This document shows positions 47,991 to 52,959 of a stretch of 64,000 nt of DNA, piece after piece (within the stretch, counting starts at the first letter, position 1; every line of letters starts with the position of its first letter). The stretch covers positions 1 to 64,000 of IMG/VR virus record IMGVR_UViG_3300030108_004141; one strand, 5' to 3'. Source of the DNA: a virus. Both the position numbers and the translations under genes were made by a program. The notes beneath the pieces were generated by a model, which saw nothing but the letters and a program-made list of their open reading frames with translations, was not told the DNA's origin and did not search any database.

Positions 47991-49217
47991 ATGCTTAAAC
48001 TTCAAAGCTATCTCACCGAGCAAAAGAATGTTCACATGGAGCACCTCGAAGATCTGGTGCTGAACAAAGGTATTGTCGGTGCACGTGAGATATTTGCATT
48101 CCTGACCTCACTTGGTGAGATGCTTGGCGGCAATAGCAAAAGCAGTATGAAAGCCACTGTCAAGTGGGATGGTGCACCTGCTATCTTTATGGGTGTTGAT
48201 CCTGCTGACAAAAAGTTCTTCGTTGCGAAGAAAGGTTTGTTCAACAAAACTCCTAAGATGTACAAAACGAATGCTGAGATCGATGCTGATATATCTGGCT
48301 CTCTCAACGCAAAGTTCAAAACTGCTCTCGCTGAGTTTGCGAAACTTGGTTTGAAGAGTGGTGTCGTTCAGGGCGATATGATGTTCACCAGTGGTGATGT
48401 CAATACCGAAACAATCGAGGGCAAAAAGTATTACACGTTCCAACCCAACACGATTGTATATGCAGTTCCTATCAATACACCTTTGGGTCGCCAAATCAAA
48501 CGATCAAAGATTGGTGTCGTTTGGCATACAACATACGAGGGAAAAGATATTCAATCAATGCGTGCATCGTTTGGTAAAGGTATTGTTCGTCGGTTGAGAA
48601 AGAGCAGCTCGGTTTGGATGGATGATGCAACTTATCGTGATGTATCTGGTCAGGCGACTATGACTGCTGCTGAAACGAAAGAGTTCCGTGGTCACGTTTC
48701 TGCAGCTGGCAGATTACTTCGCACGATTCCTACTAAAGCACTGGCGACGATAGCGGATAACGAACAGCTCTTGATGATGGTCAAGACGTACAACAATACA
48801 AAGGTCCGAGCTGGTGAACCTATAAAAAATACAACTGCTCATGCTCGTGGTCTGATTACATATCTCGACGCTAAGTTCAAAGCAGAGGAAGACAAACGTA
48901 AAACCGAAAAAGGCAAGCAAGGTGTTCGTGATAGAAAGAAAGAAGTCATGGGACCTTTGCTGACTGTTCCTGTATCCCAGCTCGCTGCGATATTTGATTT
49001 CATGAATACCATTGTAGACGCTAAAGCAATCATCGTTCGTAAAATGAATCAGGCGGCATCGGTCGGTACATTCTTAAGAACGAAAAAGGGATTTAGAGTT
49101 ACAGCACCTGAAGGATATGTTGCTATCGATAAATCTAAAGGGGGAGCAGTAAAGCTGGTCGACCGACTAGAGTTCAGTCGAGCGAACTTTTCTGCCGATG
49201 TTCTTAAGGGATGGTAG
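47991..49217 (+). CDS. ligase-like nucleotidyltransferase with capsid-targeting-like leader
   Basis: MLKLQSYLTE; KWDG, VQGDMMF, PEGYV, VKLVDR in ligase motif order I-III-IV-V. Confidence 0.6.
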   Translation: MLKLQSYLTEQKNVHMEHLEDLVLNKGIVGAREIFAFLTSLGEMLGGNSKSSMKATVKWDGAPAIFMGVDPADKKFFVAKKGLFNKTPKMYKTNAEIDADISGSLNAKFKTALAEFAKLGLKSGVVQGDMMFTSGDVNTETIEGKKYYTFQPNTIVYAVPINTPLGRQIKRSKIGVVWHTTYEGKDIQSMRASFGKGIVRRLRKSSSVWMDDATYRDVSGQATMTAAETKEFRGHVSAAGRLLRTIPTKALATIADNEQLLMMVKTYNNTKVRAGEPIKNTTAHARGLITYLDAKFKAEEDKRKTEKGKQGVRDRKKEVMGPLLTVPVSQLAAIFDFMNTIVDAKAIIVRKMNQAASVGTFLRTKKGFRVTAPEGYVAIDKSKGGAVKLVDRLEFSRANFSADVLKGW

Positions 49218-49378
49218 AAAAGATAAAGAGCGGCGACAGATATATTGTAATGGTGAACGGTAAAATAATGTTTCATGGCAGCACCGAAAATGCTGCTAAG
49301 TTTGCTAAAAGTATAAATAACAGGATAGATAGATCTAATTCGGAGGAAAAAAATGCCATATCAGATTCTAACGCCTGA
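49211..49378 (+). CDS. small hypothetical protein (55 aa; not in the ORF track)
   Basis: MVEKIKSGDRYIVMVNGKIMFHGS...; overlaps both neighbours. Confidence 0.45.
   Translation: MVEKIKSGDRYIVMVNGKIMFHGSTENAAKFAKSINNRIDRSNSEEKNAISDSNA
49312..49319 (+). promoter_or_regulatory. late promoter TATAAATA
   Basis: Exact consensus upstream of the internal-protein cluster. Confidence 0.8.
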
Positions 49379-49997
49379 GGGCTGGAGAAATATTCTACCT
49401 GAGCATAAAGGCGATAAACCTCACAAACACCCTCACGAGGAAAAAACTGAGTCAGAAAACCCTGCGAACTCTTGGCATCTTTGTGCTAAGAATGTAGTTC
49501 ATGAACAGTGGGGCGAGGGTATTTGTGTTCCCGAACTTCATGCTGACCCTGATCAAGATGGTAAGGTTGCTTGGTACGACGTTGTGTTCGAGCACGGTTT
49601 GGAAAGAAAGGTAATGATCGAAAAGCTACAGGTTACGAAAGCTGAGGATCATATGCATAAGGGCAAAAAAGAAAAAAAGAAAATTGCAGAACAGGTTATT
49701 TCAGACTATAGTAAGAAAAATATGGTTCACCATATTACACATGATGAAGATGGTGATGCTGGTAAAAAAATGCCAAGTTCTGATCATGCTCACATAAAGA
49801 ACACTAAACCCACTGCATCAAATATTAAAGATAGAGATGGTGTTCCTCACGATGTTTATCATCATCCGAAAGGTCATACTCTTATTAATAGGAAAGATCC
49901 TAATATGGGTCATTACGCGATGCGCCTAAGTGGCCACCATCATCCACAAAAGGTGATAAAATCATATGACAAATATAATAGTGGTGAGCATTCTTAA
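49353..49997 (+). CDS. His-rich modular protein, probably internal to the virion
   Basis: GGAGG RBS; modules separated by LPE/KTE/IAE; VVHEQWGEG, WYDVVFEHG. Confidence 0.65.
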   Translation: MPYQILTPEGWRNILPEHKGDKPHKHPHEEKTESENPANSWHLCAKNVVHEQWGEGICVPELHADPDQDGKVAWYDVVFEHGLERKVMIEKLQVTKAEDHMHKGKKEKKKIAEQVISDYSKKNMVHHITHDEDGDAGKKMPSSDHAHIKNTKPTASNIKDRDGVPHDVYHHPKGHTLINRKDPNMGHYAMRLSGHHHPQKVIKSYDKYNSGEHS

Positions 49998-50010
49998 AGT
50001 TTAAACCACA

Positions 50011-50063
50011 ATGCGATAAGCTCAAGGGAAACTCGCATAGCAGTAAGTCTAAGGAAAACCTGC
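50011..50063 (+). promoter_or_regulatory. tandem hairpin RNA element over the RBS
   Basis: Two stems with different sequences closing matching 16-nt loops TAAG-YYY-AAGG-R-AAAC. Confidence 0.6.
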
Positions 50064-50064
50064 G

Positions 50065-52959
50065 ATGAAGAAAGCAACGATAACATTTGGTAGGATGAAT
50101 CCTCCTACCGTCGGGCATGAAAAGCTCGTTAACAAGGTTATCGCAGTTGCACGCACAAAACGATCAGAACCTCGTGTATATCTTTCTCATACGCAAAATC
50201 CTAAGAAAGATCCCTTAAAGTATTCTCAGAAAATAAAAAATGCACGCGCTGCATTCGGCAACGTCGTGAAGCAATCAAACATAAAGAACATCGTTGGAAT
50301 TATGCAGTCTTTGGAAAAAGAGGGCATAGAAGAGATCACGATGGTTGTCGGTTCTGATCGTGTATCTAATTTCAGAACCTTCCTAAACAAGTACAACGGC
50401 AAAGACTATAACTTCAAAAAAATTACAGTGGTATCAGCTGGCACTCGTGATCCTGATGATGCTGGTGTTGCTGGAATGAGTGGAACTAAAATGCGTCAGT
50501 TGGCTGCAACTGGTAAAGAAAAAGAGTTCGCTGACGGTGCTCCCTCAGGATTATCTGTAGCACAAAAGAAAACACTCTACAAGGATGTGAGAAAAGGAAT
50601 GAACATACGAGAAGAAGTAGAACTGCTCGAGGCAGAGTTCAAAGATAAGGATCTTGAAAATTATATCAAGAGAGCGCAATATCAAGATTTCGAACCTACA
50701 GTCGATGATGTTGTTTTAGCTAAACATATCTTTCAACAAGACGACGATGAACTCGAGGAAGACGAAGAGGAATTAAACGAGAGAAAGCCACTCACGTTTC
50801 AGCAGAGACAAAAGATAGCAATTCGCATGAAGCGACTCGCTCCAAGAATGAAGCGTCTTCGAGCTATCAAGAAAAAACGTATGGCAACTCCCGATCGTCT
50901 TAAATATCGTGCGCGCAAAGCTGCTTTGAATATCCTTCGTCGCCGAGCTGCTGGCTCTCGTGGCGCGAAGTATGCATCTCTGAGCCGAACCGATAAAATT
51001 AATATCGACAGACAACTCAATAACAGGTACAAAGGTCCAGCACTTCGTAAGATAGTCGATCGTTTTTCTAGACGTATGTTACCAATGATTAGAAGAAAAG
51101 AAATGGAAAGACTGAAAAAAGCAAGGTCAGCTAAAAAAGAAGAAATCGATATTCGATTTGAAACTTTTTTATCTGAAGAAACTTATAAGGGTGTTGATAT
51201 AGGCAACTGGGTATATGAGGGTCCGAAAGATTTTGTTAAGAAACTGATTGATGAGTTCGGCAAGCCAGACTATATTGAAAAGAACCCAGAAAGTGGAGAG
51301 GCATACTCTGCTGTGTTCAAGAACATAGATGGTTTCGATTTCGTTCGTATAGTAGATTCAAACACTAATAAGCTGCACCCATATCCTGCAAAAATATATG
51401 TAGAGGGTGGTTTATATTTCAAAGTTCCACAAGAAATGGTTGGAAAGTTGAAGGAGGCATCCCCAACAATTATAATCGATGAACTGAACGGATTTGTTAT
51501 AGGAAAATGTGCGAGCTTGACCATATGTGCCGCAACGTTGCAATTTGTTATCGATGCTGTCAACGGTGACGCACCTGCGACAAGGGAAGAGTATGATAAG
51601 AGACTTCGAAAAATTATCGATGATGGTAAGACTGATCCAGAAATACCATGGTGGGAAAATAAACTAAATGAATCGGTGATACTCGAAAAAGAAGACAGCG
51701 ATATCGGCGATCGTAAAGGGAAACAACCAGCGCAGTATCACAGTGGCTTGAAAGTTTCAACAAAGAAAAAGAGAGACACTCAGTTTCAACGTCAGGCTAA
51801 AATGAAAGACGATGACCCACGTGCATATAAGAAGGCTCCTGGTGACTCCGCTAAAACTAAACCATCACAATATACAACGAGGTACAAGCAAATGTATGGA
51901 GAGGATATCGATAAGGAGTTCGAAACATTCCTTGAGCAATCATCTGCGCTTGATAGACTAAAGAAGTTCGATAAGTCGCGAGAGGCTGCAGGAAAAAAGC
52001 CAATCTTCACTCCAAGTAAACCAACCACCTTTGTGAAGATGAAGAAACCTGGATTGATGACCACAATGAATGTTCCTGACCATGAGGTTGACAAATATAA
52101 GAAGAAAGGTTTCAATGTACATAGTGAGGAAAATATCGATACAAAGTTTGAACAGTTTCTCGAGTACACAGTAACCCCATCGAGCCATTTAGCACCAACC
52201 TCTGCACCAAGAGATATCATTCCTTCGGTATTTGCTTCCGATGATGAGGATCCAAGTGACAAGGCTTCACGAAAGAGCAAGGTTGATATTTTGTTGCGTC
52301 TCGGTTTAGTGCCGAAAGATGAAATACAAAAGTATCGACGTGCGCTTCGTAATAGAGACACTGCTCTTAAGAATCCTGATTTGCGAAAGAAGCTCGATAA
52401 TTTGCTAGACAAGCTGCTCGACTTTTCCACCAGCGACTCTGCTGTTTATCAGAAGTTACGCAGGTCAGTGACGCAAGAGGATATTGAGCGTCGTGCTGAT
52501 GTCAGAATGATAAAGGTTAAGATGCCTGATGGTCGAGTGGTTTTCAAGAAAGATAGAAAAGAAATCAAAGTCGGCGATGTTCGTGAGGATGAGGCTCTCA
52601 TGAAAAAGCATGATAATGAAAAAGAGCGGTTGAAACTTCGCCATGCTCGAGAAAAAGGTGCGGCAAAAGTTCGTGCGATTCGGCGTGATAATTTGAAAGA
52701 TGAGGTTGAACTTGATGAGAAAGCTCTGAAGGGTTTACAAAACAAAGCTGAAAAATCTGGTATCCCATATGGTATCTTGAAACAAGTTTACAACCGAGGT
52801 ATGGCTGCTTGGAAAACAGGTCATCGCCCAGGAGCAAGTCAGCAACAATGGGCGTATGCTCGCGTGAACTCTTTCATCACAGGTGGTAAAACTAGAACGA
52901 CTGCTGATAAAGATCTTTGGGCAAAGGCAAGCGCAGCTCGAGCTAGGAAGAGAAAATAA
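50065..52959 (+). CDS. 964-aa modular polyprotein with N-terminal HxGH nucleotidyltransferase domain
   Basis: FGRMNPPTVGH, VGSDR, MSGTKMR; then basic and globular modules separated by EExIDxxFExFL(x)E linkers. Confidence 0.8.
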   Translation: MKKATITFGRMNPPTVGHEKLVNKVIAVARTKRSEPRVYLSHTQNPKKDPLKYSQKIKNARAAFGNVVKQSNIKNIVGIMQSLEKEGIEEITMVVGSDRVSNFRTFLNKYNGKDYNFKKITVVSAGTRDPDDAGVAGMSGTKMRQLAATGKEKEFADGAPSGLSVAQKKTLYKDVRKGMNIREEVELLEAEFKDKDLENYIKRAQYQDFEPTVDDVVLAKHIFQQDDDELEEDEEELNERKPLTFQQRQKIAIRMKRLAPRMKRLRAIKKKRMATPDRLKYRARKAALNILRRRAAGSRGAKYASLSRTDKINIDRQLNNRYKGPALRKIVDRFSRRMLPMIRRKEMERLKKARSAKKEEIDIRFETFLSEETYKGVDIGNWVYEGPKDFVKKLIDEFGKPDYIEKNPESGEAYSAVFKNIDGFDFVRIVDSNTNKLHPYPAKIYVEGGLYFKVPQEMVGKLKEASPTIIIDELNGFVIGKCASLTICAATLQFVIDAVNGDAPATREEYDKRLRKIIDDGKTDPEIPWWENKLNESVILEKEDSDIGDRKGKQPAQYHSGLKVSTKKKRDTQFQRQAKMKDDDPRAYKKAPGDSAKTKPSQYTTRYKQMYGEDIDKEFETFLEQSSALDRLKKFDKSREAAGKKPIFTPSKPTTFVKMKKPGLMTTMNVPDHEVDKYKKKGFNVHSEENIDTKFEQFLEYTVTPSSHLAPTSAPRDIIPSVFASDDEDPSDKASRKSKVDILLRLGLVPKDEIQKYRRALRNRDTALKNPDLRKKLDNLLDKLLDFSTSDSAVYQKLRRSVTQEDIERRADVRMIKVKMPDGRVVFKKDRKEIKVGDVREDEALMKKHDNEKERLKLRHAREKGAAKVRAIRRDNLKDEVELDEKALKGLQNKAEKSGIPYGILKQVYNRGMAAWKTGHRPGASQQQWAYARVNSFITGGKTRTTADKDLWAKASAARARKRK

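Follow-up and report, generated by a model that had tools for sequence, protein, structure and literature searches.

A covarying leader hairpin, most likely cis-regulatory, before a late gene family of uncultured marine T4-like phages

The DNA analysed here (the window) comprises 64,000 nucleotides, positions 1 to 64,000 of the IMG/VR virus record IMGVR_UViG_3300030108_004141, and is part of a 79.8-kb viral contig that is ~44% complete. Two small hairpins stand immediately before the start codon of a gene encoding a 964-residue multidomain protein, and the second of them contains the Shine-Dalgarno sequence of that gene. The results presented here reveal that these leader hairpins are a selected RNA fold that is conserved, gene-specific and located on or touching the ribosome-binding site. 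The element is most likely a gene-specific cis-regulatory RNA of uncultured marine T4-like phages. The features at the locus are as follows.

50011..50038, + strand: hairpin 1, identified from the sequence, covariance model R1 and folding of the isolated hairpin
50040..50063, + strand: hairpin 2, a canonical family member, identified from the sequence, the covariance model and a scan of IMG/VR with its 16-mer
50050..50055, + strand: Shine-Dalgarno sequence UAAGGA, made up of the tetraloop and the 3' strand of the inner helix of hairpin 2, 9 nt 5' of the AUG
50065..52959, + strand: downstream gene, 964 aa, nucleotidyltransferase/basic/DUF5824, identified from the open reading frame (ORF) and domain matches

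Hairpin 1 consists of ATGCGA (50011-16), TAAGCTCAAGGGAAAC (50017-32) and TCGCAT (50033-38), followed by an A at 50039. The outer helix, P1, pairs 50011-16 with 50033-38 over 6 bp and encloses an internal loop of UAAG (50017-20) opposite AAAC (50029-32). The inner helix, P2, pairs CU (50021-22) with GG (50027-28) and is capped by the tetraloop CAAG (50023-26). Hairpin 2 consists of GCAG (50040-43), TAAGTCTAAGGAAAAC (50044-59) and CTGC (50060-63), followed by a G and then the ATG at 50065. Its P1 is formed by GCAG (50040-43) with CUGC (50060-63), its internal loop by UAAG (50044-47) opposite AAAC (50056-59), and its P2 by UC (50048-49) with GA (50054-55) around the tetraloop UAAG (50050-53). The two 16-nt loops are identical at 12 of 16 positions, and the second includes AAGGA at 50051-55. 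Folded in isolation, hairpin 1 has an energy of -5.4 kcal/mol, with the motif fold as the minimum free energy (MFE) structure, and hairpin 2 has an energy of -4.2 kcal/mol. An earlier inspection of the letters (the sequence-only reading) had described the sequence at 50011-50067, both stems, the 12-of-16 loop match, the inner CT/GG and TC/GA pairings and the distance of 1 nt to the ATG, and all of these were found exactly as it gave them.

Taken from the window sequence alone, the case for a functional RNA is weak. Folding of 49990-50090 with RNAfold gave z = 0.48 against shuffled sequences, an ordinary folding energy, and a degenerate loop pattern allowing 2 mismatches matched the window 9 times against 6.5 expected, which is no enrichment. 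A covariance model built from 73 related hairpins matched the window at 50037-50066 with 42.8 bits (E 3e-11) and at 50013-50036 with 20.8 bits (E 7e-4), the next-best match reaching 14 bits. No further loop repeats were found anywhere in the window.

It is the relatives that bear out the proposal of the sequence-only reading that the hairpins are a selected RNA structure. The exact 16-mer of hairpin 2, with its flanks left unconstrained, was found at 110 places in IMG/VR, and at 100 of these it is bordered by at least three consecutive complementary bases. The same 16-mer served as a control in 596 Gb of prokaryote genomes, where it occurs at 97 places with chance-like flanks: 62 with no pair, 18 with one, 11 with two and only 6 with three or more. 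The difference is significant (Fisher p = 4e-39, a figure inflated by related sequences). One of the six, L169 (NYWG01000148.1, a 'Verrucomicrobiales' metagenome-assembled genome), carries a phage late promoter, the hairpin and the nucleotidyltransferase gene and is therefore a misbinned phage fragment. A second, L238, is probably misbinned phage too: its stem is 5 bp long and is preceded by a stretch resembling hairpin 1. Apart from misbinned phage contigs, the prokaryote genomes scanned do not contain the structured form.

The stems around this loop covary. Twelve distinct 3-bp P1 cores, all Watson-Crick, were observed, ten of them around an identical loop. The covariation score over 73 distinct hairpins was 0.763, whereas shuffled partners scored 0.206 and sliding the partners by 1-3 columns left at most 0.09. 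The percentage of paired positions in the 73-hairpin alignment is not evidence, because that alignment was filtered for pairing. RNAalifold was also applied to a plain MAFFT alignment of 19 leaders sampled via the downstream protein; it recovered both P1 and P2, with compensatory changes at four of the five pairs. Both conservation and covariation were found in these homologous leaders, where the sequence-only reading had proposed to look. The proteins of these relatives are 45-59% identical, yet the loop is almost constant. Moreover, the internal loop is the same in the upstream hairpin of tandem pairs, although that hairpin has no Shine-Dalgarno sequence, so that a role as ribosome-binding site does not by itself account for the conservation of the loop. 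The asymmetry of G-U and A-C pairs, considered as a test of strand, provided too few cases.

Across the family, P1 is 3-8 bp long and the whole hairpin 22-32 nt. The sequence-only reading had described a 16-nt loop with inner pairing; the inner pairing holds, but the segment is not a plain loop, being composed of a 4x4 internal loop, the 2-bp P2 and a tetraloop. The internal loop is near-invariant, with 5' U-N-A-G opposite 3' A-A-A-C. Positions U1, A3, G4, G10, A13, A14, A15 and C16 are invariant in the 73-hairpin alignment, and rare departures from them occur among the gene-sampled variants. P2 joins positions 5-6 to positions 11-12 through UC/GA, CU/GG, GC/GC, GG/CC, AC/GU or UG/CA, and both inner pairs are present in 79 of 85 pattern matches with an outer stem versus 22 of 92 without one. 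The cap is mostly a Y-N-M-G tetraloop (UAAG, CAAG, UACG, UUAG, CUAG or CACG; more rarely UAUG or CAUG). When folded in isolation, the hairpins range from -1.7 to -6.5 kcal/mol, and 86% of them have the motif fold as their MFE structure.

The motif always lies on the coding strand, directly 5' of the start of one gene, whose 5' leader consists almost entirely of a single hairpin or a tandem pair. The gap between loop and start codon is mostly 2-8 nt, and the proximal hairpin either stops 0-3 nt short of this codon or runs into it. Such a position fits translational control. The proximal hairpin usually supplies the Shine-Dalgarno sequence UAAGGA. The burial of this sequence in the loop, as claimed from the window, is correct there, but several relatives have a separate GAGG or GGAG 1-4 nt 3' of the hairpin. 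Likewise, the tandem arrangement is real in the window but is not an essential feature, since 54 of 76 distinct leaders have a single hairpin and 22 a tandem pair. An exact T4 late-promoter box, TATAAATA, is present within 130 nt in 55 leaders, and in 44 of these the distance from the box to the first stem is 1-20 nt. In the T4 late-promoter geometry the transcript starts close downstream of the box, and the hairpin therefore lies at or near the 5' end of the late mRNA in these leaders. Four loci of one subclade (L037, L039, L047 and L094) have an unrelated extra hairpin, AGAATC...GATTCT, between the box and a single canonical hairpin, and in L049 and L061 the upstream hairpin is degenerate, its loop being at least 17 nt long.

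The motif occurs once per genome. Covariance model R1 detected it at one locus only in the window contig and in six related contigs (38-100% complete), and the same single-locus pattern was seen in ~0.9 Mb of related loci. R1 found no motif in the cultured phages HTVC008M, Melnitz and Syn9, in which the homologous gene overlaps or abuts the preceding gene, has no leader and is translationally coupled. IMG/VR holds at least 598 relatives of the gene; among the best 74, which were examined, 19 carry the motif, and most of the others are translationally coupled or have a different leader. Nine loci without the hairpin but with their own late promoter (L282, L288, L302, L291, L314, L294, L324, L326 and L330) have in common a short leader, GCTG(C/T)AGAGGC(G/T), ~20-30 nt before the start codon, which may be an alternative leader type.

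The gene that follows the motif always belongs to the same nucleotidyltransferase/basic/DUF5824 family. In the window, the 964-aa product carries an HxGH nucleotidyltransferase (phrog_3041) at the N terminus and DUF5824 at the C terminus, together with an Arg/Lys-rich module at approximately residues 238-362 and further modules. Three repeated acidic linkers, (E/D)xID..FE(T/Q)FL(S)E, lie between its modules at approximately residues 360-375, 612-625 and 690-702. Proteins of the family are 600-1270 aa long and usually start with FGRMNPPTxGH, and Pfam recognises DUF5824 in 39 of 48 complete examples. The motif is kept where the nucleotidyltransferase is swapped for another HxGH type, YGGGFQPFHxGH (L055 and L058), and where it is absent (L031, L061, L063 and L125). 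The tie to a nucleotidyltransferase suggested by the sequence-only reading was therefore not upheld; the motif follows the whole multidomain gene family. Because the motif is independent of this domain, the idea that it senses a ligand related to the nucleotidyltransferase is weakened. The family has a modular make-up: in Melnitz the Arg/Lys-rich module is encoded by a small gene of its own (gene 17, L249:3026-3418), and two family members have an AAA_33/Zeta-toxin-like kinase domain. Comparison of the nucleotidyltransferase domain with PDB sequences and NCBIfam gave only sub-threshold HxGH hints, and residues 213-964 had no usable match in the ESM Atlas.

All genes of the window contig are on the + strand. 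The window encodes a gp43-type DNA polymerase with ~51% identity to the counterparts in cyanomyoviruses and in the Methylophilales phage Melnitz, and TATAAATA occurs 13 times in the window versus 3.3 expected, every time on the + strand. Because of the likeness of the polymerase and the excess of + strand boxes, the source phage is, as judged from its sequence, an uncultured marine T4-like myovirus. Two further features lie upstream of the hairpins.

49312..49319, + strand: T4-type late promoter box TATAAATA, the nearest box 5' of the hairpins
49353..49997, + strand: 214-aa His-rich ORF, upstream of and outside the motif, inserted between the late box and the hairpins

The box at 49312 probably drives a bicistronic late mRNA comprising the 214-aa ORF and the 964-aa gene. 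No late box was found in 49320-50010, and no sigma-70-like promoter or terminator within 49150-50250. With no late box beside them and no promoter or terminator in between, the hairpins of the window are therefore probably internal to the transcript, yet still at the start codon. A 335-nt strain-level indel at 49676-50010 lies directly 5' of hairpin 1. The sister contig L002 and one contig from an RNA library are without 49676-50010, and both retain the two hairpins. The indel takes away the His-rich C-terminal part (the 3' third) of the 214-aa ORF, whose stop codon then abuts the hairpin stem. More broadly, this phage, cyanophage Syn9 and Melnitz have a syntenic order of a helicase, several genes, DUF6267 and the nucleotidyltransferase gene (window 47991-49217; L146:2806-3768), and in many loci bearing the motif a DUF6267 gene ending in ...KGWQK is directly 5' of the late box. 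No match was found between 49300-51300 and cultured phages at the level of DNA similarity.

The hairpin family is apparently uncatalogued, as the sequence-only reading, which did not recognise it, had indicated. Scans with Rfam 15 gave no match in the window at the gathering threshold, only two chance-level matches (12.9 and 12.5 bits) in 49900-50150 at E up to 10, and none in 12 related loci at E up to 1. No description was found in literature on the motif sequence, DUF5824, the gene name or structured RNAs of phages. A 2023 survey of ~10,000 viral candidate RNAs lists ~8,500 unnamed candidates from IMG/VR (PMC10690425), and the present family may be one of these.

Several known elements resemble the leader hairpins in part. 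The guanidine-II (mini-ykkC) riboswitch also has two small tandem hairpins with covarying stems and near-identical apical sequences, the second overlapping the Shine-Dalgarno sequence. It was rejected on several grounds: the leader hairpins have no ACGR tetraloop, their conserved nucleotides are in the internal loop, most loci have one hairpin and Rfam gave no match; in addition, the motif is phage-only and the downstream gene always belongs to the nucleotidyltransferase/DUF5824 family rather than being a guanidine export or carboxylase gene. The T4 late genes e, soc and I-TevI likewise have a hairpin over the ribosome-binding site beside a late promoter. In those genes, however, the late promoter is inside the hairpin, so that the late transcript is without the 5' arm, and there is no conserved loop family. 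Here TATAAATA precedes the whole hairpin, ending 1-20 nt 5' of the first stem in the 44 leaders noted above, and the late mRNA therefore contains it. Sites for CsrA/RsmA have ANGGA in all loops; hairpin 2 has AAGGA, but upstream hairpins commonly have UACGGC or UAAGGC without GGA, and the conserved part of the leader hairpins is the internal loop. The lambda nut site combines a boxB hairpin, with a 5-bp stem and a GNRA-like pentaloop, with boxA and acts remotely from start codons, whereas the leader hairpins have another loop architecture and a position locked to the start codon. The PeSL cassettes of T4-type phages occur many times per genome and combine a sigma-70-like early promoter with a terminator stem-loop (PMC2839356). 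The present element differs from them in having one locus per genome, no sigma-70 promoter or terminator, and a late box as the neighbouring promoter.

By analogy, the element would in its action chiefly resemble the operators bound by coat protein in RNA phages and the gp43 operator of T4, although it has the defining features of neither. The replicase operators of MS2, Q-beta and PP7 are hairpins at the ribosome-binding site that are bound by coat protein. Like the leader hairpins, they are ~20-25 nt long and contain the ribosome-binding site and start codon of a single gene, and they have a stem that is free to covary around a few fixed unpaired nucleotides and a weak intrinsic stability, such that repression requires a bound protein, as is presumed for the leader hairpins. 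They differ in having a bulged A and a 4-nt loop, as opposed to a 4x4 internal loop, a 2-bp helix and a tetraloop, and the leader hairpins belong to a DNA phage, are often tandem and lie at the 5' end of a late mRNA. Identity with an MS2-type operator was rejected because that type differs in sequence and geometry, its hairpin having a bulged purine and a tetraloop of the ANYA type with the start codon, and because a double-stranded DNA T4-like phage has no such coat protein; the likeness is functional only. The autogenous operators of T4 (the gp43 hairpin, the gp32 pseudoknot leader and the RegA sites) come from the same T4-like lineage and are likewise leader RNAs at a ribosome-binding site, there read by a phage protein. 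They belong to early or middle replication genes and are unrelated in sequence, whereas the gene here is late and its autoregulation putative.

It is most likely that the element is a cis-regulatory leader hairpin controlling the translation of the downstream gene. How it would do so is a more tentative matter. A translational operator bound by a trans-acting protein is the favoured mechanism, at slightly under even confidence, and both position and conservation fit this functional class. The internal loop would be the recognition surface for the protein, which could be a phage protein, possibly the basic product of the gene itself, or a host protein. Binding would clamp an otherwise weak hairpin and thereby keep the 30S subunit off the ribosome-binding site, and tandem copies may allow cooperative or dimeric binding. 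The isolated hairpins are of weak stability, as would be expected of a structure able to block initiation only with a partner. Several observations weigh against such an operator. None of the protein domains is restricted to loci with the hairpin: Melnitz and HTVC008M possess both the nucleotidyltransferase and DUF5824, and Melnitz also the basic module, yet neither has the hairpin, and the basic module is also present in other loci without it. The AlphaFold model of DUF5824 (predicted local distance difference test score 75) is a small all-helical bundle for which Foldseek found no match in the PDB at E <= 0.001, a result that supports neither side on RNA binding. Only a single metatranscriptome contig spans the hairpins; contigs cannot reveal 5' ends, and DNA carry-over is possible. 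Finally, most relatives have the hairpin right where the late transcript begins, a location that equally suits a leader that stabilises the mRNA or recruits ribosomes.

Such a constitutive structured leader, though rather unlikely, is the alternative that deserves most attention. A hairpin at the 5' terminus could shield late mRNA from decay that depends on the 5' end, or could show the Shine-Dalgarno sequence apically as an efficient or standby ribosome-binding site, with no dedicated regulator and with the conserved loop read by the ribosome or a general host factor. The proximity of the first stem to the late box, the apical location of the Shine-Dalgarno sequence in the proximal hairpin and a stability modest enough for ribosomes to open the hairpin are all consistent with this. 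However, a near-invariant internal loop is needless for stabilising or displaying, and the loop is kept both in upstream hairpins that have no Shine-Dalgarno sequence and where a separate one follows the hairpin. The hairpins of the window are probably internal to their transcript, and the leader is used by this late gene alone, both in the window and in the related genomes searched. The element could be a phage-restricted riboswitch among the smallest known, in which the 22-32-nt hairpin is the aptamer and the internal loop senses a metabolite, perhaps a nucleotide linked to the transferase, whose binding stabilises the hairpin over the ribosome-binding site and gates translation of the late multidomain protein. 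Conserved unpaired nucleotides between covarying helices, a stable tetraloop cap, the position on the ribosome-binding site and the HxGH nucleotidyltransferase with which the downstream gene usually begins would agree with this, and the tandem form could provide cooperativity, as in guanidine-II or glycine switches. It is nevertheless improbable. There is no further tertiary element beyond 22-32 nt, the motif is independent of the nucleotidyltransferase, and the downstream gene is a late gene in a cluster that does not look like a metabolic operon. In several relatives the Shine-Dalgarno sequence is outside the hairpin with no visible alternative pairing, and hence there is no expression platform. 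The absence of the structured form from bacterial genomes also means that it is not a host riboswitch.

The two remaining explanations do not involve translation. In its small size, conserved loop and covarying stem, and in its place just 3' of a promoter, once per genome and sometimes paired, the hairpin recalls a nut/boxB- or put-like RNA. At the start of a late unit, such an RNA would recruit a factor to RNA polymerase that promotes antitermination or processivity. This role seems very improbable, as the position follows the start codon and not the promoter: in the window and in L002, ~700 nt and an ORF separate the box from the hairpins. No boxA-like partner was seen and there is no terminator nearby, and to our knowledge no nut- or put-like mechanism exists for T4-type late transcription. 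Least credible of all is an element acting at the DNA level (for example an origin, a pac-like site or a palindrome that binds protein), or else a functionless local duplication that arose by chance. The presence of one locus per genome would suit a DNA site, and the copies in the window could stem from a 27-nt duplication. Yet strict complementarity across 12 stem cores points to pairing within a single strand rather than recognition of a sequence, and the motif is always on the coding strand, directly before the start of one gene and containing the Shine-Dalgarno sequence of that gene. The prokaryote control excludes chance.

The gene regulation of open-ocean T4-like phages is known almost solely by analogy with T4, and the hairpin adds a well-supported compact RNA control element for these phages. 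It marks a large uncharacterised family of late nucleotidyltransferase/basic/DUF5824 genes as specially regulated, which offers a handle on the function of the family. With a length of 22-32 nt and a defined conserved internal loop, the hairpin is an experimentally tractable target. If a protein partner is found, the two would constitute a new small RNA-protein recognition pair.

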